From NCBI GenBank assembly GCA_054600435.1, contig BAAIJX010000078.1:48673-68672 (forward strand): a stretch of DNA of 20,000 bases, given 5' to 3'. The stretch comes from Neophaeotheca triangularis (taxonomy: Eukaryota). Below the pieces are notes generated by a model, which saw nothing but the letters and a program-made list of their open reading frames with translations, was not told where the DNA came from and did not search any database. The first letter of the stretch is position 1; every line of letters starts with the position of its first letter. A program made the translations under genes and the position numbers. Below, piece by piece: positions 1-19,127 of this stretch.

Positions 1-234
1 CGACGGGAGATTGTTCACATCCTCCCTCTGCGCCCTCCAACGTTTCTATTCTTGACGACAGCGCCGTCGCAGACTCCTCCGCTTCATCTTCGCCCAAGGC
101 ACAGCACGTGAAAGAGCGGGTTAAGTGAGGACGGGTCAATTTGTCGCGGAATGCCGCAACGGTCGTCAGATACCCGCTTCGTACCTTAAACCCCGTACGA
201 CTGCTCGTCGGCCACCATAGCCAGCCAGCTCAAA

Positions 235-2888
235 ATGAACGGCGACCTCAGTCTCTCCCAATCGCTCGGTGGCCTGCGAATTGCCAACCCGGACAGTGAC
301 GACGAAGCCCTTGCCTCTCCCCAACAACCAACCCCTGCCGCGCGACGACCACCACACCCTTCCTCCCGCGACTCTGAAAGTACCATCACAGGCGGCAATA
401 GCTCGAGTACAGTGCCAAGCATAAACCACGACTCTTCATTGTCAGAATATCACAACCAGCGATTCGAACCAGACGAATTTTCCCTCCAGAATACCCAGCG
501 ACACTCTCAGTCACCGGCTGCCTCGCAATATGGGAGCTATCAGTCCCAGCCTGGCCAAAGCCCTAGGATGAGCTTGCCGCCAGAGGGCCATGGGCATCCG
601 CCCCGACGGTATCCATCTTATACTTCGGAGCATAGTGGACCGTCTCGGAACCCAGGGCCATCCCCACGCCCTATCAGTGGCATGTACACACAGCCGAACA
701 CGTCCTCGAGCTCTCACATTTCAAGTCAAGGGTCTCACAGATTCCGTGACGACACTTACTCATCCGACGGTAGCGTCAACGGGCTTGCAAGGAGTGGGTC
801 CAGGTCAGCAAGGCAGATGGTGGGTTCCACGCCCTCAAGACAAGGCAGCAACAGGGTGTACCGAGGGGATAGCCAACAGATTGGCGGCAATGGACCGCTG
901 CCTCCTCGACGGAACTCGAAGCGAGCCAAGCCGCAAATGGCTGGCGGGCCGCAGTACGACCCAAACGTACCGTACGCAGGGTCGGCGCCGGTGCCAAAGA
1001 CAGCAGATGAGTGGAGAGATAGGGGAGGAGCGACGTCGGTAAGGCAGGAAACAGATGCGGCTGGTAATACACAAACACGGATATTAAAAAAGGGACCCAA
1101 GGACTTTACATTCGGCCGCACGCTGGGCGAAGGCTCGTACTCGACAGTACTCGCAGCAACCGACCGACAGACTCTGAAAGAGTACGCTATCAAGGTACTC
1201 GACAAACGTCACATTATCAAAGAGAAGAAGGTAAAGTATGTGAATATTGAGCGAGACACTCTGAACCGATTAACGGAGCACCCTGGCGTTGTGCGGCTTT
1301 ACTACACGTTCCAAGACGAACGAAGTCTATACTTCGTACTTGATCTGGCCACCGGCGGCGAGCTCCTAGGCGTGCTGAAGAGAATGGGAAGCTTCGACGT
1401 TGAGTGCACAAGATTCTACAGTGCACAGATACTGGACAGCATAGCATACATGCACTCAAGAGGAGTCATCCACCGCGATTTGAAACCCGAGAATGTACTG
1501 TTGGACAAGGACATGCACGTGAAGATCACAGATTTCGGCACTGCGAAGATTCTTTCAGATCCCAAAGCCACAGGATCGGCGCAAGCAGACGAGGGAAATC
1601 CGTTGGATGGCTCAGAGTCAGACCGAGCGGTCAGCTTTGTAGGGACGGCAGAATACGTCAGTCCGGAACTGCTGCGCGACAAGAACGCCTGCAAGGCGAG
1701 TGATTTATGGGCTTTCGGTTGCATCATGTACCAATTGCTGGCTGGAAGACCGCCATTCAAGGCCAACAACGAGTACCTCACATTTCAGAAGATACTGGCT
1801 CTGGAGTATACCTTCCCCGAAGGCTTCCCGCCAGTGGCCCGGGACCTGATAGAGCGTTTGCTAGTACTCGAGCCCTCCAACCGGCTGCCCATAGAGCACG
1901 TCAAGAACCATCAGTTCTTCGATGGCACTCAGTGGGGGAAGCTGCTCTGGCGGCAGAAAGCACCTCGTCTGAAGGCGTACGAGCCTCCCGCCTCCCAGCC
2001 CATCAGGCTAAACGGTAACGGCAACCCAAATGGCGGCTCTTACGGGGCCATTTCCGCCGGCACGTCAACACAGCAGAACCACACACCGTCTCCGCCACAA
2101 CACCATCAGTATCCAGGGCCGAGACCGCAAATGAGAGGGATCACCGAGCTCCCGCCTCCCTCCCAGTTGGATATCGACTGGTCCCCCGTGCTAGGCAACA
2201 ATGAGCGCATTCTCAAGCTCGGTAACCTCATGGTACTTTCATCGCCACAATCGGACGCGCCAGCCGGCACGCCCACAGAGAAACCCAAGTTTTCACGCTT
2301 CTTCAGCAGCGGGACAACCAAGAAGCGCGAAAGGCTTGTACTCATCACGAGTAGTGCACGGCTTATCATAGCGGCGGCGGGAGGAAACGAGAAAAAGGCA
2401 AAGCTAGAGGTGGAATTGTTGAGGAACGGGTGTCAGTGGAAGAGCTTCAAGGACGTGAAAGGATTGACGGGGTGGTGCGTGGATACGGTAAGATTTGCTA
2501 TGCTTTCACCGTTGTTGGTGCTTGCAAAAGTTGGCTAACGTATTGTTCGCAGCGTGAGAAGCATTTGTCGTTCGAAGACCCACGCGCTACGCCTTCCGAC
2601 CCCCAAGGATCGCACTACTCGACGAATGAATGGCTTGAATCGTTGGAGCGGGCACGCGAGCTCGCCCTTTCGCAGAGCCAGTCCACGTATTCGGGCGAAG
2701 ACACTGTCGGCGACCTTCAATCGCCTTCACAATCCGGCGGCATAGGCGAGGGCGATCAGCCGCGAGCCACGCGACACACACTGCGCAAGAACAGCGAGCT
2801 TGGGGGCGGAAGTCCCTCGGACGACGGCAAGGGGAGGAAGCGATTCAGCAAGCGACACAGCAAGAGCGGGCTCGCAGCGGTGTTTTAG
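235..2888 (+). CDS. ksg1: PDK1-family (Pkh1/2, Ksg1) Ser/Thr protein kinase with C-terminal PH-like region; exons 235-2487 and 2553-2888, about 862 aa
   Basis: Kinase motifs LGEGSYSTV, YAIKVL, HRDLKPEN and DFG, plus the PDK1-type activation segment RAVSFVGTAEYVSPE. Removing intron 2488-2552 joins ...WCVDT|REKHLSFED... in frame with ORF 2430..2888. Confidence 0.95.
2488..2552 (+). other. Spliceosomal intron (65 nt, phase 0) of the kinase gene
   Basis: Donor GTAAGA at 2488, branch point GCTAAC at 2534-2539, acceptor CAG at 2550-2552; splicing restores the reading frame. Confidence 0.92.
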
Positions 2889-3601: not shown

Positions 3602-4027
3602 GTCTCGCTCGCTGGCTATTGACTTCACATCCTTCCTCTTCGCTGTCCCTCTTCGGCTGTCCCGCGATTAAGGGGGAAAAGAGAGGGCGGAACGTCACTG
3701 AGCAGCCGACCAGCAATGTTTACTGGCGCAGCCAACTAAACCCGACCACTGGCAGGACATTACCTTACTACTACTCTGCTCACTCACTCGCGATTCTCAC
3801 GCCTTGCTCGCGTACTCAATCACCGACTCCTGCCCACCCCGGCATTACGCGCAACCCCGTGACGACCAATTACTCTCCGCCAAGCTCCGCCGATTTACAT
3901 GCACCGCCTGAGTCCCCGTGACACGACATACCTAGTGACTCTGCTATCTTCCGACCCTCCATGCTACCACCTCCACTGCTTTGCTCTCTAATTACATCTC
4001 CCATTCGCGCCTGAACCAGCTGCCAAG

Positions 4028-7000
4028 ATGGTCAAGGCAGATGTCAAGCGTAATTACTACGCGGATCTGGAAGTGTCTAACACGGCAAGCGTGGAGGAGA
4101 TTAAGAAGCAATACAGGAAGCTGGCATTGGCCTACCACCCGGACCGAAATGCCGGCAAAGAGGAGGAGGTCATACCCAAGTTCCAGGCTATTCAGGCAGC
4201 GCATGAAGTCTTGACAGATCCTGTTCAAAAGGCAGACTACGACAACGCTCGGCGCAGCGCCGGCCTCTATCCAACATTCAACCGCAACAGGCCTGGCGCT
4301 GGTACTGCCGGGTCTACCGGTACCACGGGAAACCCCTACCAAGCTTCTTCGAATTTCCCACCTCCACCGCGCCGCACTCAACCAGGTACCTACAACCGTC
4401 CTCCGCCCTACAATGCTGGCAATGCTGGCAAAACGCCCAACGGTGCAGATCGCTTCTCCAGCTTCCCCAAGCCTTCCGCTTCACAACAGCGCTCCGATCC
4501 TGCGCAAGATCGCACCAACATGTTCAGAGCTTGGCAGAATATGAACACTCCTCAAGATCGTCAGGGGCGACCCGGACAGACGAGAGGAGGCGCGACAAGC
4601 GCAGGCAGAGGAGCGCCAACAGGACAACGGCCAACACCTCCACCAAGACAAGGTACAACGTATCCTACAGAAGAGGACATAAAGGCAGGCATGAACTACA
4701 CGCGCGGTCCTCCGCCGAAACCACCGCCTCGCAACCCGGAGACCAACTTCAAGAACTATCAAGAGAGCCATGGTACAGATTCCGCGGAGAAGACGAGGAC
4801 AGCATGGCAGTCATTCCAGGCTAGCGGAGGTAAGGCCGGCGTTGGTCGTAGCAAGACCACGCGCACACCACGAAGGGGAGGCTTTGATCCGAGTGCGCCA
4901 GGCTCCGATGAACGCCCTGCAAACGGAAGCTACACAAATGCCAGGCACAAGTCGGACGATATGGGCAGACCATTCGATGGGATGCCTCCCCCACCACCTG
5001 GTCCACCTCCGCAGGCTCCCGGATCCGTACCCACATCCCCTGATCAAAGTCGTCAGCGACCTCATCCTGATCCTCTAAGACCATTCCAAAGCCGAGAGGA
5101 AGATGCGCCCTATTCCGAAGGCAATCGCAGACGTACTCCCTATAGTTCGTTCAGCGGCGAGAAGACGGATTTTGGAAGCGATATGCGCAGGTCTGCAAGC
5201 ACGCGCGACACGACAAAGCTCCACGAACAGGGCACACAGTCTGGATCTGGACAGGGCAGGCACAAGAGCACGAGTCCTCCTGGTCGTCAGAACCGCAATA
5301 ACGCTCAGCAGGCTCCTACTGGACAACCACATCGTAAGCCATATACGGAATACAGCAGCAACAGTGATGGGTCTAGCGACGAAGACTCACCTCAAACAGG
5401 CAGGTTTGGACAGACTGCGGGCTCGAGGACTTCTCATGGTAGACCCATGGCGACGCCCAGAGCTAGCAACTACTCTAACTCTAACACCCCATCCGCGGGT
5501 GCGGGTGAAACAAGCAGGCCTCCCACTGCTACGGATGGTGCACAGTCAGACGGCGGTGCCTTTGGACAACGCCCAGAGAGCAACGGCAACATGTACGTGA
5601 ATCCTTCTAGTGTTCCCCTCAAGCGCAAATCCCCCATGCACAGCTTTCCTTACTCAGAGGTATGGTCTCTTAGCATGTTCAATCTGCCTGAGACAGACAA
5701 CGGGTACTATAAGAAACAGAAGCACACTATCTGCGCCATCCCAACATGGGCGCTTCCGAGCACAGTAGTACCAATGACCTGGAACAGTAAACGTCAGGTT
5801 CCAGCATCGTCGATTCGTGCCCAGCAGATCGCTGAGAGGGTGGCTGCACGAGCCGCTCTTAACCAGCTACAGTCTATGCTCGTCATTGAGTATGGCGGCG
5901 ACGAAGGGCTGGATATGAACGTTTTCTCCGAGCTCGTCATCATGTACGAGGAGGGCTGCTCAACCGGCCACTCCCGCCTCGACGAGATGCTCAAATTCGT
6001 CTTCAAAACCCATCCTGACGCGCTCACCAAATCTACCACGCACACGGCAGCTAACCAGAGCTCTTTTGGCAGTTTCAACTTCCCCGCTGGTACTGCCGAG
6101 GAGACTTTGTCCTCGCCCGGTGCCAAAAGTCGCAGCGAAGAGAACATTAACACCAAGTTCTCGCCAGGAGGCTGGAACGGTACTTTCCAAGGGACAGGCG
6201 ACTACTTTGCCCCACCGCCCATGGCCGGCAAGAAGTCTGTGTCGCCTACCAGACGTCAAGGACAGCGTTCGAACTTGAGGTCCTCGACCACTCCCGGGGG
6301 GCCTACGATTCCGGCTGCCGCAAACGAGGCTCCGACAGGTGTACCTCCGCAGCAAGATCCCACGGAGGCGAATGGTTCTCAGCCCGCTCAAGTACCACCA
6401 AGCAGCGACGCCCGCTTCAATAAGGACACCTGGGCGCAGACTTTCAAGGAAGCCGATTGGGTTTTCCCACCACCGCCCCCCGGCAATCCACCAAGCCCGT
6501 CAAAGCCTCCCAGCCGTAGAGTTCCAAGTCGCAAGTCTAGCAGGGCCGGCAGTAAAAATACCGCTGCGGGCTCCAAAGCCCAGCCGCATGTGGTCGATGA
6601 GACAGAAGAGCCCACCACGGTCGAGGAGCCAAATTCAGCTGTACCAGACGACATTGACGCCATGGACATTGACAACACGCCGCCTCCCGCTCGCCAGGCT
6701 ACCCAAGCACCCCTGCCAAAGGCGCCAACCGCTGAGAATGTAAGTTTCAAAGGGCCACGCCTATACCCTATCCCCACGTCGCCATGGCACCAACAACAGC
6801 AAAAGCAGCAAAACGGCCTTTCAACGCAATCACCCCCGCCAAACCCGCAACAACAAAACCAAGACAATCTCAAAACCAACCTCAACGACATGGCCAACGT
6901 CGCCCCCTTCGCCCAATACTCCGAAGGTCTCTCCAGCTTCTCCGACGTCAGCGCCTCGCTCCCCTTCAAATCCGCTGCCTCGTCCGCTGGCCCTTCCGCC

Positions 7001-7450
7001 CCGACTCCAAAGGCCGACGACGACGACCCACATCACCGCAACCTGCAAACACCCCAACTACCCAAAGCCCCCGACGCGCCGCCCAAACTCTCCAAACGCG
7101 CCTGGTCCGAGTACGTCACCCGCTTCGCCGCCTACATGCGCGCTTACACCACGTGGTCCGAAACAATGCTCAACCACTTTGTCGCGCGCACTTTCCAGGT
7201 CGACGAGCGCCTCAAAATGGGCAACAACTGGCTCGAGGCTTCTGGGGACGTTACAGGTGGTGGTGCTGGTGGGGGGGAGATGGGTATCGGCGGCTGGGCA
7301 GGGTATATGTCCGGGCTGCGCGAGGATGGTGTGGTTAGAGAGAAGTGGGTCGTTGGTTGCGAGAGGCATGCGGCGGCTTGTGTAGGGTTCGAGAAGGTTA
7401 GGGAGAGAGTGAGAGCGTTGGCTGCGAATGGGACTTTGCTTGAGGGGTAG
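4028..7450 (+). CDS. Large J-domain (DnaJ class C) protein: N-terminal J domain, long Pro/Ser/Gly-rich disordered middle, helical C-terminal region; 1140 aa unspliced or 980 aa if 5593-6072 is spliced
   Basis: N-terminus NYYADLEV...EEIKKQYRKLALAYHPDRN...FQAIQAAHEVLTDPVQKADYD contains the HPD motif. No Gly/Phe-rich linker or zinc finger is seen. The ORF is continuous. Confidence 0.9.
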   Translation: MVKADVKRNYYADLEVSNTASVEEIKKQYRKLALAYHPDRNAGKEEEVIPKFQAIQAAHEVLTDPVQKADYDNARRSAGLYPTFNRNRPGAGTAGSTGTTGNPYQASSNFPPPPRRTQPGTYNRPPPYNAGNAGKTPNGADRFSSFPKPSASQQRSDPAQDRTNMFRAWQNMNTPQDRQGRPGQTRGGATSAGRGAPTGQRPTPPPRQGTTYPTEEDIKAGMNYTRGPPPKPPPRNPETNFKNYQESHGTDSAEKTRTAWQSFQASGGKAGVGRSKTTRTPRRGGFDPSAPGSDERPANGSYTNARHKSDDMGRPFDGMPPPPPGPPPQAPGSVPTSPDQSRQRPHPDPLRPFQSREEDAPYSEGNRRRTPYSSFSGEKTDFGSDMRRSASTRDTTKLHEQGTQSGSGQGRHKSTSPPGRQNRNNAQQAPTGQPHRKPYTEYSSNSDGSSDEDSPQTGRFGQTAGSRTSHGRPMATPRASNYSNSNTPSAGAGETSRPPTATDGAQSDGGAFGQRPESNGNMYVNPSSVPLKRKSPMHSFPYSEVWSLSMFNLPETDNGYYKKQKHTICAIPTWALPSTVVPMTWNSKRQVPASSIRAQQIAERVAARAALNQLQSMLVIEYGGDEGLDMNVFSELVIMYEEGCSTGHSRLDEMLKFVFKTHPDALTKSTTHTAANQSSFGSFNFPAGTAEETLSSPGAKSRSEENINTKFSPGGWNGTFQGTGDYFAPPPMAGKKSVSPTRRQGQRSNLRSSTTPGGPTIPAAANEAPTGVPPQQDPTEANGSQPAQVPPSSDARFNKDTWAQTFKEADWVFPPPPPGNPPSPSKPPSRRVPSRKSSRAGSKNTAAGSKAQPHVVDETEEPTTVEEPNSAVPDDIDAMDIDNTPPPARQATQAPLPKAPTAENVSFKGPRLYPIPTSPWHQQQQKQQNGLSTQSPPPNPQQQNQDNLKTNLNDMANVAPFAQYSEGLSSFSDVSASLPFKSAASSAGPSAPTPKADDDDPHHRNLQTPQLPKAPDAPPKLSKRAWSEYVTRFAAYMRAYTTWSETMLNHFVARTFQVDERLKMGNNWLEASGDVTGGGAGGGEMGIGGWAGYMSGLREDGVVREKWVVGCERHAAACVGFEKVRERVRALAANGTLLEG
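5593..6072 (+). other. Candidate in-frame, stop-free intron (480 nt, phase 2) within the J-domain gene
   Basis: Donor GTACGT at 5593, branch point GCTAAC at 6050-6055, short pyrimidine run, acceptor CAG at 6070-6072; length divisible by 3. Confidence 0.6.
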
Positions 7451-8282: not shown

Positions 8283-9204
8283 CTAATTCCCCCGCCTATA
8301 AGCTCTATACCGATGAAACATCCTCTTGGCCTGCTTGGGCGTGAAGTGATCCATGCAAGCATCAAAACTATAATCCATGAAATTGTGGATACTGTCCAAG
8401 CCCTTGCGATCGGGACAGCTGTCCTTGCCGGTCGGGCAAGCGTAACTGGGAGTCGACTGACGCGGGGTATCGGGGACGTAGTCGCCGCCGCCGCTGCAGG
8501 AACTGCCTTGGAAGACGTGGAAGATGCCGAGCCAGTGGCCCGTCTCGTGCACGGCGGTGGCGCCGAGGTCGTAGTTGGCGAAGCTGCCGCCGGGGAGGCT
8601 GTCGGCGGCGTTGACGCAGCCGTCGAGCGTGCGTTCCAGGCTCGTCGGGTTCGGCACTGGGAAGTAGCAGAATCCGAGCAGCCCGTCGCGGAGGCGGGAG
8701 AAGAAGTAGAGGTTTAGGTCGGCGTAGGTGCCTTGGCGGAGTTTTTCTTTGAGTTGGATTTCGAGTTCGTCGAAGTCGGCGCCGCTTGAGGGGTCCAGGC
8801 CTGGTTCTACCGTGAAGTCGAGGCTGATGTAGTTGAAGGAGAAGCCGGTGGAAGCGTAGGCTTCGTTCATTTTTTGCATCTGGGTGGGTGGGGGTTAGTG
8901 GATGGTATTTACAGGTGGAGACGGGTCTCTGTCAACGAACCTGTTGCTCAACTTGCTCCTCGGTGTAAGCGCCTTCTCGGTCGGGCGAGGTGACAATGTG
9001 GACGTACGTGTTGACATTGGTCGTCTGCACCTTGCCCTGTCGGTTTTCGAGATGAAGAGAGTCGTCTCGAGCATCGATCTCGGGGTCTTCGTTCATGAGC
9101 ACCACAGGGGGTTCAGGAGCACCACAGCGTGTGAAACCATCTGGGTCCTGGGCGACGGCCAGAGTCGCCAGAGCGGCCGAAGCCAGCGCGAATGCTACCT
9201 TCAT
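8283..9204 (-). CDS. Secreted zinc metalloprotease, family M43B (pappalysin/ulilysin-like, fungal MEP1 type); exons 9204-8941 and 8879-8283, about 286 aa
   Basis: Signal peptide MKVAFALASAALATLAVA and a propeptide RCG motif. Zinc motif HETGHWLGIFH, D-x-V-x-DTP and Met-turn NFMDYS are present. First ATG is at 9204 (the ORF-track start at 9213 is TTG). Confidence 0.94.
8880..8940 (-). other. Spliceosomal intron (61 nt, phase 0) of the M43 protease gene
   Basis: On the minus strand: donor GTTCGT (8940), branch point CTAAC (8898-8894), acceptor CAG (8882-8880); joins EQQ|MQKMN in frame. Confidence 0.92.
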
Positions 9205-11206: not shown

Positions 11207-13417
11207 CTACCTCCCATCCCCACTCCCCCCAGCCCCAACCTCGCCCTCCTTCATCTCCCCCTCCTCCCCAGGCAGGAAAATCTCATGCCCACTCCCGTTC
11301 TTCACCCACAAAGCTGCCACGCAACCCACCGCCGCCACACAACCCACAATCCACCAACTCATGCCCACAACGCCCCTGTCGAGCCAAATCCCATACCAGA
11401 ACCCCGCCAACATGGGTCCCAGAGTGCGGAAAGTGGCGCTGCAAGCCTGGCCGACGCCGTGGATGGTCGCGAGGACAGAGGGGTGGGGGGAGGAGTTGTT
11501 GAGGAGGATGATGGAAGCCGGCAGGGCAAAGGTTCGGGCTGAGACTTGGAGGAGCAGGACGAAGGAGATGCCGGCCCAGATTGCGAAGCCCGACGAGGGT
11601 TCAGGTGAGGGCGTGGACGAGGGGAGGAGGGCGATGTAGGGGGCGAGGAAGTAGGCGGCTGGGAAGAGGATGAGGGAGCTCCGGAAGCAGCGCATTAGGC
11701 CGAATCGTGAGTTGGCCCAGGGGTACAGGAGAAATTGTAGGGCGACGCCGATGAAGCCGATGATGGCCATGGCGAAGCCGATGGTGGGAGGCGGGAAGGC
11801 GAGGCCTTGGGAGAATTTGAAAAAAGAGTGTGGGGGGACATAGTCCGGGGGTGCGTTTTCCGGGATGAATTGGCGAGGGGTGGCGAGGAAGAGGATCCAG
11901 AGGTTGGCAAAGGCGCCCATGTGAAAGTCGAAGATGGCAATGGTGACGAGAGTCCAGAGGACGTTGGAGGTCCAAATGCGGCGGAATGGGAGGCGTTGGA
12001 TGGGGCGGGCTTGGTCGCGTTCGCCGGTGCTGTTGAGACGGTCCATTTCGAACGAGTTCCGTTCTTGGCCAGACAACAGGCCGTGGCGTTGCGTCTCTTG
12101 CAGCGCTTTATAACCCTTTTCGCGCGCATTTGTGATTTGACCCGTGACTGAGCGGAACAAGGCTATCGGATCGAGTTTGGAGAGCTGCAGCGGCTTCTTC
12201 CCCTTGAGCGTCTCCTCCAGCCCAAAATACACCAACGCAGCCTCCGCAAACAACAGCGCCGTACTAAGCAAGTTGGCCACCGCATAGGGATAATCGCGCA
12301 TCCACGCAACCCCACTCGCGCCACCAAACGTACTCCCCTCGCCAAACATGTGCGGGAAGTTCTTCACCGGCTCAACCAACAAGCCCCCCAAAATCGGACC
12401 CAGCACATTCGCAACATTAAAAGCCGCCGGCAACAGCAAAAAAGCGCGCGGATGCCAGGGTTTCGGCGTGACCTCGGCGACCATGGTTCTCGCAGACCCA
12501 ACCGTGCCATTGATAGCGCCGCTCATAACTCGCCAAAACACCGCCTGCCCGAACGTCGTGCTGAAGCCCACTCCTATACACCCAAACCCCGTTCCCACCA
12601 GCCCAATCAACAAGACCAACTTCCTGCCCACGCTCGGCTGGTCCGCCGCCCGCCCCCATAATATGCTCGTAACGATTTGTGCGGCTGTGAACGACCCCTG
12701 TAATATGCCTGCTTGGTGGGAAATGGCGGAATCGGGCTGTTCTGGGTCAAAGGATTTGAGCTGGTGCACCATATATGTTTGTATCGCTGCCATTTGAAAG
12801 AAATCCACGAACCGCGAGCAAGCGAGGATAGCGAGCTGGATTTTATTAGGCATGTTGCCCCACGAGGGGGTCGGGGGTGTGTAGGTGGAAACATTGCTTT
12901 TGGCGAGGTGCTCGGCGGACTCGAGGTTTGGGGTTGAGGCGCCAGAGGGGAGCGTCAGGGGTGGGGATATGGGGCGGAGGGTTTGTTCTTGTCGGTATTG
13001 AGCAGAGGTTTTGCGTTTGCTGTCGTAGTCGTGGTGGTGAGTGGACATGTTGTCGTCTTTGTCGTATCCGCCATTACCGTCTTCCAGTCTATGAGGGGAG
13101 TAGCCTGTCCGTGTTACCGTCGGGGCATTGCTGCCGTAGTAGGGTTCTTCGTCGGCGTAGGGTGAGTCCGTGTCGAGCGGTTTATCGTGTTGGTTGTGCT
13201 GGAGGCTTTGTCGCGGGAGTGAGGGTTGCTGGTGTTGCGGAACTGAGAGGGAGGTGGTGCGTCGCTGGGCGTCTTGGGATTGGGAGGGGGTCTCGGGATG
13301 GTGGTAGTCGTACTCGTCGTCGTAGTCGTAGTCGTAGGAGGCGGAGGTTTCCCGTTGACGGAGAGGCCGCGACGAGTTGCGCTTGTGTGCCTGCGAGGCG
13401 CTGCGTTGGTGAGCCAT
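11207..13417 (-). CDS. Major facilitator superfamily transporter (DHA1-like; resembles the YCR023C/ZIFL group) with a roughly 190-aa hydrophilic N-terminal tail; 736 aa, no intron needed
   Basis: Two bundles of hydrophobic helices separated by a long central loop. MFS motif A variant WGRAADQPSVGRK, R-x-x-x-G in FWRVMSGAING, motif C-like VLGPILGGLL, and ATIHGVGQ...RTLGP near the C-terminus. Confidence 0.93.
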   Translation of the reverse strand: MAHQRSASQAHKRNSSRPLRQRETSASYDYDYDDEYDYHHPETPSQSQDAQRRTTSLSVPQHQQPSLPRQSLQHNQHDKPLDTDSPYADEEPYYGSNAPTVTRTGYSPHRLEDGNGGYDKDDNMSTHHHDYDSKRKTSAQYRQEQTLRPISPPLTLPSGASTPNLESAEHLAKSNVSTYTPPTPSWGNMPNKIQLAILACSRFVDFFQMAAIQTYMVHQLKSFDPEQPDSAISHQAGILQGSFTAAQIVTSILWGRAADQPSVGRKLVLLIGLVGTGFGCIGVGFSTTFGQAVFWRVMSGAINGTVGSARTMVAEVTPKPWHPRAFLLLPAAFNVANVLGPILGGLLVEPVKNFPHMFGEGSTFGGASGVAWMRDYPYAVANLLSTALLFAEAALVYFGLEETLKGKKPLQLSKLDPIALFRSVTGQITNAREKGYKALQETQRHGLLSGQERNSFEMDRLNSTGERDQARPIQRLPFRRIWTSNVLWTLVTIAIFDFHMGAFANLWILFLATPRQFIPENAPPDYVPPHSFFKFSQGLAFPPPTIGFAMAIIGFIGVALQFLLYPWANSRFGLMRCFRSSLILFPAAYFLAPYIALLPSSTPSPEPSSGFAIWAGISFVLLLQVSARTFALPASIILLNNSSPHPSVLATIHGVGQACSATFRTLGPMLAGFWYGIWLDRGVVGMSWWIVGCVAAVGCVAALWVKNGSGHEIFLPGEEGEMKEGEVGAGGSGDGR

Positions 13418-14632
13418 TGAGTTTGCGAGTGACGCGCCGCGCCGGAGATAAGAGTGACGGGGTCGGAAGCTGGTTGAAGTATGTGGCAGCGATGATGCCG
13501 AGACTTGAGAGAGAGCTGAAGGTGTGCTTCCGTGTCTACGGTCTACCTTCTAGTGTGGGAGGGGTGCTCAGGTTGCCTTGGCCCGGGTGGCACCTCAACT
13601 TTCTGTTCTCGTCCTCCCCTCTGCTCCCCCTCCCATCCGACACGAGGTACGAGTAACGACTGTAGTAGTAGCAGTAGTAACAATATCGATTAACGCCCGG
13701 GTATAGTTTGCTAGCCAGCCGAGCTCGATGGCAGAAGTGAGCGGAAGTCGACGGCAGCAACAAAAAGCAACCCACTAAGCTCATGCAGTACTGTGGCTCA
13801 GAACAAAGTCTCGGGTTTGCTAAGGTTGTTGTAGGTAGCACAGCATCATGTAGGGGGAAAAGTGTCAGTCAATTCCCCAGTTAAAAAGCAAAGATACCTT
13901 ACTGTACCTACCTACCTCACTCTACCCAATCATTACCCCTAGCAAGGTACCTACCCAATCTACACAGGCCAGCCAATTCATTGCCAAGTCGATTCCATCC
14001 GGCATTGCGCGTCGCGTGCGGCGTAGATCAATTAATGTACCTGCAAAGCCCACACAAACGAGATGTAGATAAAGGTCAGAAACAGTTCATCACGCCCGTC
14101 ACTCCATGGTAAAACACACGCCTCAGATCTGGACAAGCTCGGTGAAACACAAGTCAGATACAAAAGCAGAGTAAAAGTAAATCCGAGGCAAGACTGATTA
14201 CGACGCTGCTTCAAAAGCACTCACTGGCCGCCACTGGAGATCTGGATAACCGAGACAGTACAAAGTGACCATCAATCCCGTCGGCTAGAATCAATTGCCA
14301 TTATCGAATATTAGGCGGGGGAGAAACGCGTCGGGAAGCGCAAACACCCAACCCTGAGGTCGAAACGATGATAAGGGCTGCTTATAGCACATTGAACGCG
14401 TGTTCTCGTCCTGCAGTTGTCCCTCCCTCCCTATTGACCTACTACCATCAATAATCATCTCGGCAATGCTGCATCTGAGCAAAGGGTATATTGGAAATGC
14501 TAGCGGTAACGACTACTGCTAACAGGAGCTCGCTATGCAAAGTCGAGACGGATTCAAAATGCCTCCGCCGTACAAAAACACCCATCTCCAATGCAGACTC
14601 TTGAGACTATGCACAGCGACACAAGACATTCT

Positions 14633-16820
14633 TCATCGCGCATCTGCACCGGCGTCCGCATCCCCCTCCCCTTGTCCACCCCTACCACTCCCATGCCCCT
14701 CCTTACTCCCGTCTCCAGAATTGCTACCGCTAGAGGCACTCTCGCTCCCCTCCATCTCCCTAATCCTCCCATACGCACCGCGGCCCTTGTCAAACTTATC
14801 CGCCCCCTGCAGAGGGAAAAGATTCTTCCCCTCATGCCAAGCCTCCTTCGCCTGCCCAAAAGCCCCACGCTTCCAAGCGACGAAAACCGCGACTCCAAGA
14901 CCACCTATAACTAGCACGAGGAAGGTGAAAACTCCCAGTACAGTGAAGAAGCCGAAGCTGGAGTATGTTTTGCCGCTACCGGTGTATTTGTCGCTCTTGG
15001 CGGCGTTGGAGGTGCTTTTCTCGCCCGGGAGGGTGGCGTAGTAGTGGGAAGTGTCGAAGCCGCGGTTGGGGGAGAGGTAGGCAGCGGGGACGGAGGTGGA
15101 GGCTTCGTAGGGGGTTTCGTCCTTGGCGTGTTCGGGCTTACTGCATCCGCGATCGTCACAGTGGTCCCGGAGCGAGTCGCTGGGGATAAAGGTGCGGGCT
15201 ATGACTGAACTCGCGAGAGCGTGGCCTTTGACGTCGAGAGCTTGGGCGTAGCTCCAAGGCGCGAGGGTGGGGGTGTGCCACTCGGTTTCGAAGCCGGTTT
15301 TGGTGGCGTTGCCTGCGAGGTGCCAGGGGCCCTCGGAGGAGTCGCTGTGGTAGAAGTTCCAGCTTGCTACGTCGGTCGCTCCGTTCCACGAGGCAAAGGA
15401 GGCCATCTTGTCTTTGCCCTCGCGGCTGTAAGTCCAGAGCGCGGGTTTAGTGAGCGGTTGCGCTGTCCAGTTGTATTTGTTTGAGCGGTAGATCATGACA
15501 TTTGATGCGCGCTCGGCCAGCTTGCCGTACATGACTGCTTCGCCGTCGGCGGTATGTTCGGAGAACCAGGGGTGCTCGCCCCAACCAATGTGGACGTTTC
15601 CGCTGGAGAGAAGCTGCATGTTGCCTTGCGAACCGGATAGCAGCCCTCCTTCTGGCTCAGGAGCACCCCATTCCTTCACCACGGACGCAGTACTGTTGCT
15701 GTGGTCTATCTCAATAATCCAGCCGTGGGAAAACTCTCCAGTGCTGTTGAAAGTATTGCTGGCGTTGTCATAAAACGACAAGACCGTATGTGTGCTGTTT
15801 TCGGAAATCCAACGGGCGTGGTGTTGGTAGCTGAAGTTGAAGTTGGTCTGCTCAAACGTCGGGTTGTTCCCACCCATTTCCCACATGATATGGCCATCCT
15901 TGCCCGAAATCTTGTACAGCGCGCTCACATGCCGCGCAGACAGCAGGTAGTCCCCCTCTTTGTTCTTGTCAATCGAATTTAGGTGAAAGTAATCCCACGG
16001 CGACTTCTCGCCCAGTCCGTCTCCAGAAGTATCAGTCGTGCCTGGCATAGTCCAGCTGAGCCCAGGGTCGACATGATCCAGACTCCTCCACTCAAATATC
16101 ACCTTGCCAGTCTCAATCTCCACCTCTTGAAAAACTCCCTCGACAACCCAGCCCATACCCTTGACGACATTAAAACGCGGGTTCGTGGTGAGATCGTACT
16201 GCCGTGGCTGATAGACTGTCATGAGAGCAGTCGTCCCATCACTGTACGGCGTCATCTTGAACTCGTGCATATCGCTGCTGGCGCCCGCGCCGCTGCTCTC
16301 CACCGTCCGCACAATCTGGTAGTGCTTGTTCATGATGACACCATGCCCGCGCGCAAAACCCTGGTGCTGCTCGCCCTGAAAGTAGCACAGGTGATCCTCG
16401 CCCTTATATTGGCACACTCGAGGTGTATGGGCGGTCTTGGGCCCGCTTGAGCCCGCGCCTGACCAGACGAGGTTGCCGGCATTGTCGTAGATGTAGGGAC
16501 CGGGATCGACGTTGCGGTAGGGGGCTAGGAAGACGTAGCCGGGGGTGACGAGATCGGGTTTGAGGACGTCGAACGTTATTATAGGTGGGTGAAGGTCCGG
16601 TCGCTGGGGAATGAAGGTCAGCAGCGGTTCTTCGCTTCCGAGCATTGCCGGGCCTGTAGCTGGCTGCCTGTTTGTTGCTTACCGATTTGAATTGAGAGGT
16701 CGGGCTGGTCTTGTTGTTCAGTTGAGCCCTGGCGCCATCAACCAGTAGCAATAGAAACACTGTCAAACAGGTGCTCCATATCCGGCCTAAGCCTGGTGTA
16801 CTGAAGGAAATTGACGACAT
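14633..16820 (-). CDS. Arylsulfotransferase (ASST / Arylsulfotran_2 family) with signal peptide and C-terminal TM anchor; exons 16820-16683 and 16603-14633, about 702 aa
   Basis: Splicing gives the family-type start FKS|RPDLHPP. Motifs GPYIYDNAGNLVWSG, DMHEF, FEWRSLDH, WDYFHLNSIDK, YLLSARH, FSYQHHAR, SQGNMQLL, IGWG, SWNGAT and KTGFET are present. TM segment FGFFTVLGVFTFLVLVIGGLGVAVFVAW. Confidence 0.93.
16604..16682 (-). other. Spliceosomal intron (79 nt, phase 0) of the ASST gene
   Basis: On the minus strand: donor GTAAGC (16682), branch point CTGAC (16621-16617), acceptor CAG (16606-16604). Confidence 0.9.
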
Positions 16821-18110
16821 GCTAGCCGGATGAAGATATAGTAGACACCATACGCATAGGGCTGGGGAATGATCAGGCGAGGTACTATTGGCGTGAGTAC
16901 CGTATGTAAACAATCCAAAGGAAAGATAAGGTATTGGGAGGAATGCACGCGTTAGCAGGCGGTCATGTGTTTGCCGGGCAAAAGGGAACGAAGGTAGGTA
17001 GTGGACGTAAAAGGAAACAGGAAGGATGGCAATCTGTGTGTACGAATCTGTGTACAAGAAGGTAAGGCAAGGTACAAGCGGAAGTGATGTCCTCGGATTG
17101 GTATGGAAATGTTGCCGCCTCTCCAGAAGTCTTTCCAAGGGGTTACGTCTCCGCCACCAGTTCACGCGCTCAACAAACAGTCAAGACTAAAATGTCCACG
17201 GATGCTCTTGCAGGTGGTTAGTCTTGGGACATCTGCTCACGTCTTCTTAGTCGCTTCGACACGCATGCAGCATATGCGCCATGGCGGATCCAGTAGGTAA
17301 CCCTGAACGTCGTCGTCTTTCGGCACCGTTTCAACGAGGCCCACTCAAGTTGCATGCCAATCTAGCTGTCACTACTAGTAAGTACTCTCTGAATCAAGCA
17401 ATCGTCAACCCCCTAGATTATTCAAACAAGACCCCAACCCTTCGTCCCGTACCGTTTAGCAAACTATCATCTAACAATCAGACCTCACTAGCACTCCTCG
17501 TGTCGCCTCAATACTGCACGACGTGTGATGAACCTCCAGACAACACCTCGTAACCGCAGATACGAAACCCCTCCAAACCCGTTCTGAAAGGCTGAAGATC
17601 GTCAAAACACCAACAAGGCGATTTCTGGTAATAGGTTGGATTGCGCGTACGAGACACATTCAAACTTCGGATCGTCGGAGAGTACCTACTGCACGCCCGG
17701 GCAGACATCTCGCGAATTTGAGTGCATGTCATGGAGACGTACATGGATGTATGGACGAGGACGTATCTAGCTAGCTCACAATGTCTCCAATACTATGCCT
17801 GAGGGTAAATGTAACAGGCGTCTTTCTCTCGCTGCTCTCTACTTTGTGCAGTGTCGGTTTGGTTACTCAAGAGAAGAAAAACAAAGACTCCCAGCCACAG
17901 TTGGCAAAGCCATCCCACGTTACGCCAAGGCACCACCGGCCCAACTCCTCGCACAGGGAAAAGCACACAAAAGCAACACGGCAGCCGTCAGGGACAAGAC
18001 GGCCCGTCCGGGTGAGACATCACCGCCGTCGTGCTACCCAAAAATGACCAACACTTTCATCCAAAAGCCATCGAATCCCAACTCTTTCTCCATGTTCACG
18101 CCCCCTCTCT

Positions 18111-19127
18111 CTACGACCACAACGCACTGATGCCCTTGCCTCCCGTGAACCTCCTGACAGTCATAGTGGCACCGAGCACAATGCCCGCCAAGCTGCCGCC
18201 AACAACCACGGCGCGGAAAGCGACATTCATCATCTGCCGCCTGTTGCGACCACGACAGCGATCGACGAAACCATCCGTGTCGTTTGTGCGCGGGAACTTC
18301 TTTCCCTCGGGTACAGGCACTTCAAGGAAATCGCACAGCGGCTTCCAGCCCTCGCCCATCTTGTAGTCGAGCAGTCGCTCCGGGGGCACCATACTGTGCA
18401 CTTCGTCGTAGTATTCGACAAACTTCTTCTTGCCGTTGTTGGGGAAGTCGCCGTCCCAGAAGACGGTCCAGAATTCTGTGAAGGGTGGCATATTAGCGCT
18501 GTTGATCTTGGTAGTGTGCGAGTGTTTGTTGAGGAGAACATACTCTCGAGCATGGGCTGGTAAAGGCCCGCGCCCCAGTCGAACTTGGCCACAGCCTTGA
18601 GTTCGGGCTCAGTAGCGCGCCAGTGGACAGTCTTCATGGTGCTCGCATGCCAGCTGTCGACGTCACGGCCCGTCATGATGATCTTGGCCTCTGGGTATGC
18701 TTCAATCAACTCTTTGGCGAAAGCGACGGCCGGCCAGTCGCAAACGGCCTGGCAGTGGCCGAACAGCTGGTCCCATTGCTCGCGGCCGAAGGTGCCGAGG
18801 CCGTCGTATTTGGCTGCGAAAGCGTCCTGCCACATGAGGCAGTCGGGGGGGTTCTCAGCCGAGGCGGACATCATGTGGTAGCAGTCGTTGAAGCCGAGTT
18901 CTTTGAGTGCTGTGCGGAGGGCTGGTGGGCGCGGCTAGTTAGTAATTGTGGTTTCTTTGCGTATGCCATTGCTCTTGTGTAGGTGTCTTACATGCTGTGC
19001 CGGTTCTTCCTAGCCCGAGCGCAAGCACCCTCATGGGGACTACTCTACGGCATTCTCTCCGGTTGATGTCAGTGTCGTGTGTGAAGATGTCCGTGACAGG
19101 TTTGGGTGTGTAGGGTTGGAAGGCCAT
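18111..19127 (-). CDS. P-loop sulfotransferase-family protein (Sulfotransfer_4 type, often mis-annotated in fungi as NAD-dependent epimerase/dehydratase); exons 19127-18992, 18921-18544, 18475-18111, about 292 aa
   Basis: The spliced product reads MRVLALGLGRTGTA-S-LRTALKELGFNDCYHM...AVCDWPA...YPEAKII...RDVDSWHAS...VPPERLL...GEGWKPLCDFL...FPRTND. It ends in a hydrophobic segment VAFRAVVVGGSLAGIVLGATMTV. Confidence 0.92.
18476..18543 (-). other. Intron 2 (68 nt, phase 1) of the sulfotransferase gene
   Basis: On the minus strand: donor GTATGT (18543), branch point CTAAT (18496-18492), acceptor CAG (18478-18476); joins MLE-K-FWTVF. Confidence 0.88.
18922..18991 (-). other. Intron 1 (70 nt, phase 1) of the sulfotransferase gene
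   Basis: On the minus strand: donor GTAAGA (18991), branch point CTAAC (18942-18938), acceptor CAG (18924-18922); joins GRTGTA-S-LRTAL. Confidence 0.92.

Follow-up and report, generated by a model that had tools for sequence, protein, structure and literature searches.

The closest described counterpart to the genes discussed here is found in caprazamycin biosynthesis by Streptomyces sp. MK730-62F2. In this pathway the type III polyketide synthase (PKS) Cpz6 makes pyrones, which are sulfated by Cpz8, a sulfotransferase that depends on 3′-phosphoadenosine 5′-phosphosulfate (PAPS). The phenolic sulfate esters made by Cpz8 then serve as donors for Cpz4, an arylsulfate sulfotransferase (ASST) that sulfates the antibiotic (PMC4257720, PMC12142624), and the acceptor preferred by Cpz4 is a sugar hydroxyl (PMC13426309). 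Here we analyse a 20,000-nucleotide stretch of the genome of the dothideomycete fungus Neophaeotheca triangularis (contig BAAIJX010000078.1, positions 48,673 to 68,672; hereafter the window), which carries genes for a PAPS-type sulfotransferase of the Sulfotransfer_4 family (ST4), an ASST and a transporter of the major facilitator superfamily (MFS). The trio is a conserved micro-syntenic unit that probably predates the split between Dothideomycetes and Eurotiomycetes, and below we weigh what it might do.

According to a 2024 paper, PAPS is the universal sulfate donor of eukaryotes, and sulfation in fungi is for the most part unexplored (PMC11677658). An earlier interpretation of the window made from its letters alone (the sequence-only reading) knew of no description of such a gene set in fungi, and our own literature search likewise returned no account of the trio or of any characterised fungal ASST. 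The fungal ASSTs that we did find are annotation labels in expression or gene lists, as far as the available parts of those papers go (e.g., PMC13133591, PMC7441637), and the string “fung” occurs nowhere in a review of PAPS-independent aryl sulfotransferases from 2026 (PMC13426309). The Sulfotransfer_4 family (PF17784) is represented in Aspergillus oryzae by LdrG and LdrH, proteins that reside on lipid droplets and affect droplet number and size, and for which the authors could not obtain a double deletion (bioRxiv 10.1101/2022.11.24.517872).

The three genes lie head to tail, all on the minus strand of the window. The ST4 gene (18111..19127) has three exons and encodes a protein of 292 amino acids assigned to Sulfotransfer_4 by Pfam. 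It is followed by the ASST gene (14633..16820), with two exons and a predicted type I membrane protein of 702 amino acids as its product, identified by a match to Arylsulfotran_2 (PF14269) and by a match in the Protein Data Bank. The modelled ASST is 100% identical over the query to the NCBI protein MBLNU230_g7829t1. The MFS_1 transporter gene (11207..13417) is a single open reading frame (ORF) without an intron, encoding 736 amino acids, with its start placed by comparison with orthologues. The sequence-only reading had described three consecutive, co-oriented genes of these families. This description holds, with all three Pfam matches above their cut-offs. It had also given ST4 no signal peptide and the ASST both a signal peptide and a C-terminal transmembrane anchor, and sequence and hydropathy, respectively, agree with it on these points, although it overlooked a hydrophobic segment near the C-terminus of ST4. 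Its assignment of the transporter as DHA1-like fared less well: membership of MFS_1 is clear, while placement within DHA1 leans on a weak match to the drug exporter NorA.

The sequence-only reading had further cautioned that both sulfotransferase families are often multi-copy in fungi, so that adjacency of the genes might be due to chance. A metagenome comparison by tblastn covered 75 loci, 12 of which carry an ASST of at least 47% identity with a strong score. All five of these with flanks of several kilobases (L005, L007, L008, L009 and L014) keep the order ST4, ASST, MFS on a single strand. Five more (L001, L004, L006, L011 and L012) have the expected neighbour on whichever side their short flank permits, and the other two (L002 and L003), with flanks of 1.5 kb or less, show neither neighbour. 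ST4 is paired with the ASST in seven of the metagenome loci as well as in the named genomes described below, and tblastn with ST4 found no neighbour in metagenome loci outside the trio set. Judged by best matches, L005 is an Aureobasidium (98.7% to P0032) and L007 a member of the Pleosporales near Boeremia (83%), while L009 is Penicillium-like (its ST4 is 92% identical to a Penicillium protein and its ASST 81% to that of Aspergillus varians) and L014 comes from a second Eurotiales fungus, nearest to Rasamsonia and Thermoascus. These matches make the trio common to two classes of Pezizomycotina. The ASST of L008 is 70% identical to that of the window.

The genes around the trio are not shared. 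Within the window the other genes recognised by Pfam are a protein kinase (190-2538, plus strand), a large DnaJ-domain protein (3992-7450, plus strand) and a metallopeptidase of the M43 (pappalysin) type (approximately 8283-8894, minus strand). None of these adjoins the trio in the other loci compared, and tblastn of all three against the trio loci gave no match. Similarly, tblastx of the whole window against the trio loci, including L008, found nothing beyond the three genes. Pfam analysis of 85 flanking ORFs from the five full loci identified unrelated housekeeping genes, a different set at each locus, including genes for a HECT ligase, a peroxiredoxin, a ferritin-like protein, a ubiquitin-conjugating enzyme, a C1-like (bleomycin-hydrolase-like) peptidase, an R3H/G-patch protein, Ist1, a TFIID subunit and a methylase. 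Between the two Eurotiales loci, L009 and L014, the Ist1 and TP_methylase genes have swapped sides and lie in opposite orientation, while the block containing the trio is collinear. This collinear block also holds one or two unannotated, Eurotiales-specific genes upstream (3084-4971 in L009). Background synteny had been named beforehand as the standard for comparison, and measured against it the adjacency goes far further, being conserved in Dothideomycetes and Eurotiales while all flanking genes differ. Chance adjacency of multi-copy families is therefore rejected, as order and strand are kept across two classes in which all other neighbours have been replaced.

Locus tags and gene models from named genomes provide a separate view of the same arrangement. 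ASST and MFS tags share a positional prefix in seven genomes; they are consecutive in six (Meristemomyces frigidus LTR08, Recurvomyces, Teratosphaeriaceae sp. CCFEE 6253, Saxophila, Zalaria and Elsinoe australis) and two apart in the seventh, Coniosporium apollinis. ASST and ST4 tags are consecutive in three genomes out of four (Meristemomyces LTR08, Aureobasidium pullulans D6C84 and Bogoriella megaspora M1820), and the fourth, Elasticomyces LTR28, has tags that are far apart but is uninformative because its ASST lies on a 2.7-kb contig. The Meristemomyces tags run in series (MFS 006336, ASST 006337, ST4 006338), and in Lepidopterella palustris all three genes are found on one 13.9-kb contig. 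Two gene models fuse neighbouring members of the trio: that of Pleomassaria siparia has Sulfotransfer_4 (residues 33-216) followed by Arylsulfotran_2, and that of A. varians has the ASST followed by the MFS, with an MFS part 45% identical to the window protein over 617 residues. In Bisporella the ASST and ST4 genes share a 1.16-Mb scaffold, and in several Dothideomycetes the genes lie on contigs of equal size; these cases are compatible with linkage and do not enter the counts of adjacency given here. Carriers of the trio include plant pathogens, black yeasts and industrial moulds, and A. oryzae has an ASST orthologue.

A tree of ASSTs was calculated from 41 chosen rows in a quick IQ-TREE run, with the Shimodaira–Hasegawa-like approximate likelihood ratio test (SH-aLRT) as the only measure of support. 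All linked ASSTs fall into one clade of 24 rows (SH-aLRT 90), which includes one subclade of Dothideomycetes (16 rows, support 98) and one of Eurotiales (4 rows, support 100). ASSTs also occur at unlinked loci. L010/L015, L016/L017/L018 and L013 carry an ASST at 41-49% identity with no ST4 or MFS gene nearby, and L010/L015, L016/L018 and L013 lie outside the linked clade; because of this position in the tree the unlinked ASSTs look like paralogues. Two of these loci, L010 and L015, share other neighbours, a zinc-knuckle gene upstream and a caleosin gene downstream (L010 12852-13262, L015 13375-14010). Caleosins are a family of lipid-droplet proteins, a curious neighbour given that fungal PF17784 proteins have been placed on lipid droplets. 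A further neighbourhood of transporter and ASST, in a different ASST lineage, is seen in the Aspergillus niger protein P0504 (1377 amino acids), a gene model that fuses an ATP-binding cassette (ABC) transporter (ABC_membrane, ABC_tran) to an ASST paralogue.

The ST4 protein matches Sulfotransfer_4 in two ORFs, one over exon 2 (18230-18934, 120.1 bits) and one over exon 3 (18111-18608, 72.8 bits), against a cut-off of 22.8. Structures were compared using the full-length orthologue P0125, which is 87% identical. The matches obtained were SgdX2 (8Y9P, E 1e-33), 9KF1/9KF2, deposited as “Sulfotransferase family protein” (E 5.4e-31), and the oxamniquine-activating sulfotransferase of Schistosoma mansoni (4MUA and others, E 2.4e-23). 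ST4 contains the motifs GLGRTGTAS and RDVDSWHAS, which in P0125 align with GFGRTGTAS and RDPVQWHRS of SgdX2 and with the equivalents in 9KF1. We take these stretches to be the 5′-phosphosulfate loop and the 3′-phosphate motif, in the nomenclature of PMC11677658; the loop and the R-D-x3-W-x2-S pattern are both kept in ST4. Exon 2 is 67-88% identical across four fungal classes. In UniRef and NCBI many ST4 orthologues bear the label “NAD dependent epimerase/dehydratase”, which looks like a propagated misannotation because the proteins listed carry only PF17784, some with PF13469 in addition.

The sequence of ST4 contains no signal peptide. Near its C-terminus a hydropathy scan finds a hydrophobic segment (residues 256-274 of 292; 18168..18224, minus strand) that is flanked by basic residues, and in 60 of 70 ST4 homologues of 275-320 residues the same scan finds a C-terminal segment of this kind. 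It is a candidate tail anchor or membrane-binding helix, which would hold the PAPS-type domain on the cytosolic face of a membrane.

Two Pfam families are matched by the ASST ORF (14633-16678): Arylsulfotran_2 with 174.9 bits against a cut-off of 27, and Arylsulfotrans (PF05935) with 71.4 bits against a cut-off of 24.2. Residues 45-516 align end to end with the 472 residues of PDB entries 9KF4/9KF6, deposited as “Sulfotransferase” (E 1.8e-57), and a profile built from 23 fungal ASSTs matches the same entries at E 9.5e-99. H159, H253, R270, H271 and H307 are invariant in all 23 aligned ASSTs, and four of them (H159, H253, R270 and H307) are aligned with identical residues in 9KF4. The active site of the bacterial enzyme Dh_ASST_6 consists of His220, His283, Arg301 and His350, where His350 is the sulfo carrier and corresponds to His436 in E. 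coli (bioRxiv 10.64898/2026.10.08.757636). The fungal H...H-x17-R...H arrangement parallels that of Dh_ASST_6, an equivalence drawn from order and spacing and not from superposition, and on this account H307 is probably the sulfo-carrying histidine. By these motifs both ST4 and the ASST look catalytically intact.

The predicted topology of the ASST places it opposite to ST4. The protein starts with a hydrophobic stretch (residues 9-27) within a signal peptide region of approximately residues 1-31 (16728..16820, minus strand), and towards the C-terminus it has a transmembrane helix of approximately residues 598-625 (14867..14950, minus strand; Kyte-Doolittle peak 2.69, residues 604-622), behind which some 80 residues form a tail. 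The ectodomain between them carries eight N-x-S/T sequons, and the protein has two near-invariant cysteine pairs. Of 77 ASST homologues of at least 600 residues, 76 have a helix beyond residue 480. An N-terminal hydrophobic stretch was detected in 18 of the 77, a count made with a 19-residue window that is insensitive to signal peptides and that depends in addition on gene models retaining the short first exon. The ASST domain is thus predicted to be extracytoplasmic, with the tail in the cytosol, so that the two sulfotransferase domains would lie on opposite sides of a membrane. The conserved candidate tail anchor of ST4 strengthens this prediction. The arrangement fits the proposal of the sequence-only reading that a cytosolic PAPS enzyme and an exoplasmic ASST are joined by a transporter.

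The third member of the trio matches MFS_1 (ORF 11207-13549) at 76.9 bits with a cut-off of 33.4. The first ATG is at 13417, and the protein starts with a disordered region of about 190 amino acids followed by a core with a long central loop; a crude hydropathy scan resolved eight peaks. Orthologues are 53-89% identical to the window protein. The nearest solved transporter is NorA, a weak match (E 1.2e-5) confined to the N-terminal half (query residues 46-170), and a Protein Atlas search returned generic MFS clusters only. An Asp/Tyr-rich low-complexity repeat in the N-terminal part (13248-13528, minus strand) coincides with a peak in RNA depth that reaches several hundred-fold. This peak is an artefact in which the repeat DNA attracts unrelated metatranscriptome contigs from other organisms.

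The exon structures are partly confirmed by RNA. The RNA data are assembled contigs from runs coded X4, X6 and X7 and cover parts of all three genes; stretches without contig cover carry no meaning. The ASST exons, including the stop codon, are 16820-16683 and 16603-14633, separated by a 79-nt intron (16604..16682) whose GT..AG joint at 16603/16683 is present in one RNA contig from X4. ST4 is modelled with exons 19127-18992, 18921-18544 and 18475-18111, again including the stop. Its first intron (18922..18991, 70 nt, GT..AG) is supported by one contig each from X4 and X6 with the joint 18921/18992. The second intron (18476..18543, 68 nt) is predicted from a GTATGT donor, a CAG acceptor, the restored reading frame and an ungapped match to orthologues, with no joint listed for it among the RNA-library contigs. 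RNA-supported joints therefore coincide exactly with the predicted ASST intron and with the first predicted intron of ST4, two out of three in all. As the MFS gene has no intron, pieces of it in the RNA libraries are not proof of transcription.

A spacer of 1.3 kb on the same strand separates the start of the ASST gene from the stop of ST4, and tblastx found no conservation of this spacer in the related loci. It contains a spliced RNA contig on the plus strand (17243..17564, exons 17243-17377 and 17492-17564, GT..AG). This is a single contig of run X7 with a depth of 2.5 and is not known as a member of the module; it may be an unannotated small gene, a non-coding transcript or an antisense transcript.

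The best single explanation that we can offer for the trio is that it forms one functional module, which would pass activated sulfate across a membrane with no need for PAPS itself to cross. We hold this tentatively and put its probability a little short of even. The chemistry would begin with ST4, held at the cytosolic face of the membrane by its C-terminal segment and transferring sulfate from PAPS to a small carrier of phenolic or enolic nature. The weakly NorA-like MFS protein would move the resulting aryl sulfate to the other side. There the ectodomain of the ASST, anchored by one helix on the exoplasmic side at the cell surface or in the secretory or vacuolar lumen, would take the sulfuryl group onto a histidine and hand it on to an acceptor, so that the carrier is set free and can be used again. 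As acceptor one may guess at an external phenolic or at a glycan, secreted or of the wall, that offers a sugar hydroxyl. We infer these chemical steps, which way transport runs, which membrane is involved and that the three genes belong to one shared pathway; the splicing, domain families, intact motif residues and deep conservation of gene order were described above. We prefer the relay since it gives each of the three parts a role, draws on the conserved active sites of both enzymes as well as on their opposed topology, and has a bacterial precedent in the same two families.

Several observations weigh against this relay. The gene that would make the shuttle is missing from the neighbourhood, with no PKS among the 12 large ORFs of the window or the 85 flanking ORFs of the five related loci. 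The basic residues flanking the hydrophobic segment of ST4 could direct it to mitochondria, peroxisomes or lipid droplets and not to the membrane that holds the ASST, and lipid droplets are where the PF17784 proteins LdrG and LdrH are found. Inside the linked clade, the Phaeomoniella gene model has the ASST fused to a PfkB kinase and no MFS, and in Myriangium duriaei the ASST and MFS orthologues lie on scaffolds of unequal length; from these two cases it follows that linkage can be lost. The backbone of the ASST tree is weak, and the linked clade stands at an SH-aLRT of 90 only, without bootstrap. The RNA contigs show splicing of two of the genes and are unfit for ranking expression or for showing co-regulation. 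Finally, a survey of the 79 bacterial genome loci most similar to the fungal ASST found PF14269 paired with PF17784 in only one, L154 from Micromonospora chokoriensis, so there is no general rule that the two families go together.

Four other explanations deserve consideration. The genes could be held together by shared regulation, or be a slowly decaying neutral arrangement, and act in unrelated processes, for example with ST4 as a protein of the lipid droplet or endoplasmic reticulum like LdrG and LdrH and the ASST-like propeller as a non-catalytic surface protein. The droplet location reported for LdrG and LdrH (bioRxiv 10.1101/2022.11.24.517872), the multiple copies of both families with ASST paralogues elsewhere, and the loss of linkage in some lineages would all be in keeping with this. 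We nevertheless consider it unlikely, since trio order and strand persist in two classes though every other neighbour has been replaced, the exchange of Ist1 and TP_methylase between the Eurotiales contigs left the trio block collinear, and the catalytic-type residues of both enzymes are invariant. A role in detoxification would keep the chemistry of the relay and differ in purpose, serving defence without a dedicated shuttle: ST4 would conjugate incoming toxic phenolics, the MFS would export the sulfoconjugates, and the surface ASST would shuffle sulfate among external phenolics or sulfate them before entry. This would explain why no shuttle-making gene lies beside the trio, and the nearest solved relative of the MFS, weak as the match is, is a drug exporter. 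Bacterial ASSTs accept many phenols (PMC13426309), and an arylsulfotransferase of Phaeomoniella chlamydospora was raised in drought-stressed grapevine wood in one field metatranscriptome (PMC13133591). Genes of this kind usually vary in copy number and position, however, whereas the order of the trio is fixed across two classes, and together with the 67-88% identity of ST4 exon 2 over four classes this points to one conserved substrate. Detoxification is accordingly judged quite unlikely.

The same three parts and topology would also serve a relay running in reverse for sulfur scavenging, in which the surface ASST would load a carrier from environmental aryl sulfates, the MFS would import it and ST4 would work backwards (aryl sulfate and 3′-phosphoadenosine 5′-phosphate to PAPS), feeding assimilation without ATP sulfurylase. 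Sulfotransferases of the PAPS type can run in reverse when the aryl sulfate is a good donor. Fungi already possess arylsulfatases and sulfate permeases, which counts against such a route, and the MFS is, weakly, more exporter-like than importer-like. The sequence ATGRYRYCAT, which we take to be the consensus of the CYS3/MetR-type sulfur-regulator site, has one match in the window, inside the ASST coding sequence, and at least one match occurs in 42 of 200 shuffles, so the site is no more frequent than by chance. A Raffaelea genome paper does group arylsulfotransferases with organosulfur-assimilation genes at the level of annotation (PMC7441637). On balance, scavenging in reverse is very unlikely. 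The trio might lastly be part of a larger secondary-metabolite cluster with its backbone gene outside the window, an idea that finds some encouragement in L154, the only bacterial locus of the 79 with both families, which looks biosynthetic, and in the fusion model of ABC transporter and ASST paralogue in A. niger. The sequence-only reading had noted that no PKS or non-ribosomal peptide synthetase (NRPS) gene is present, and this remains so: no backbone enzyme (PKS, NRPS or terpene synthase) occurs among the 12 large ORFs of the window, the small ORFs at 8.9-11.2 kb and beyond 19.2 kb not being scanned. The 11 kb downstream of the MFS gene showed neither backbone nor tailoring enzymes, while upstream of ST4 the window holds only about 0.9 kb. 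In the five related loci there is neither a backbone nor a tailoring enzyme within 10 kb on either side. With PKS and NRPS missing from the window and from these flanks the trio is not a classical secondary-metabolite cluster, and an extended cluster of this type is highly improbable.

Returning to the relay that we prefer, a bolder version can be formulated. The trio would represent an ancient, vertically inherited, PAPS-independent system for sulfation outside the cytoplasm of filamentous ascomycetes, of a kind not known in eukaryotes, with a core function at the cell surface. The tethered PAPS enzyme would charge a small diffusible phenol or pyrone, a dedicated MFS would export it, and the surface ASST would sulfate wall or secreted glycans or external phenolics and recycle the carrier. 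In this full form we regard the proposal as somewhat unlikely. If it were true, it would be a eukaryotic counterpart of the Streptomyces Cpz8/Cpz4 relay put to a use other than antibiotic tailoring, and might give a role to the pyrones of fungal type III PKSs. The relay as such, if it operates as proposed, would add to the sulfation of a eukaryotic lineage a second route that is independent of PAPS. It would make clear how sulfation could take place beyond the plasma membrane or in a lumen without a PAPS transporter, and would assign a function to three widespread fungal genes now listed as hypothetical. Fungal ASSTs could also serve as cofactor-free sulfation catalysts. Because the trio is present in plant pathogens, black yeasts and industrial moulds, the question can be tested directly in tractable species.

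ST4 shares PF17784, the phosphosulfate loop and the 3′-phosphate motif with SgdX2 of the sungeidine pathway and with the Schistosoma enzyme, and adds approximately 45 C-terminal residues with the hydrophobic segment beyond the aligned stretch, which ends near residue 244-249 of P0125. To LdrG and LdrH it is related by family, and perhaps as an orthologue; all are fungal PF17784 proteins in which hydrophobic or amphipathic helices provide, or for ST4 would provide, the attachment to membranes or droplets, and the difference is that the available part of that report discusses neither sulfotransferase activity nor a link to an ASST (bioRxiv 10.1101/2022.11.24.517872). The fungal ASST resembles the periplasmic ASSTs of bacteria (PF05935; E. 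coli CFT073 AssT and those of Desulfitobacterium hafniense) in its PF05935 match, predicted extracytoplasmic location and H...H-x17-R...H arrangement, while solved structures of the PF05935 type gave no sequence match to it, even by profile at E up to 1. It differs from them in being a predicted eukaryotic type I membrane protein with sequons for N-glycosylation.

Among gene sets, L154 resembles the trio in composition: about 50 bp downstream of its PF14269 ASST lies a PF17784 gene in opposite orientation, and some 5 kb to the other side, upstream, there is an MFS_1 gene. L154 differs from the trio in belonging to a biosynthetic-looking cluster with an AMP-binding enzyme, thioesterases and a P450. 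The ASST ORF of L154 (9746-12010, plus strand) runs into a DUF3159 domain (residues 557-721), and could be a fusion or two overlapping genes. A tblastn search with the fungal MFS matched none of the 79 bacterial loci, a weak test because MFS proteins diverge fast. The caprazamycin genes and the fungal trio both combine an enzyme of the PAPS type with an ASST that is independent of PAPS. They differ in that the fungal trio is without a type III PKS or an antibiotic cluster, that the fungal enzymes are predicted to be membrane-bound on opposite faces with an MFS transporter as a fixed third member, and that the fungal module is kept across classes amid housekeeping genes and is not confined to one producer strain.

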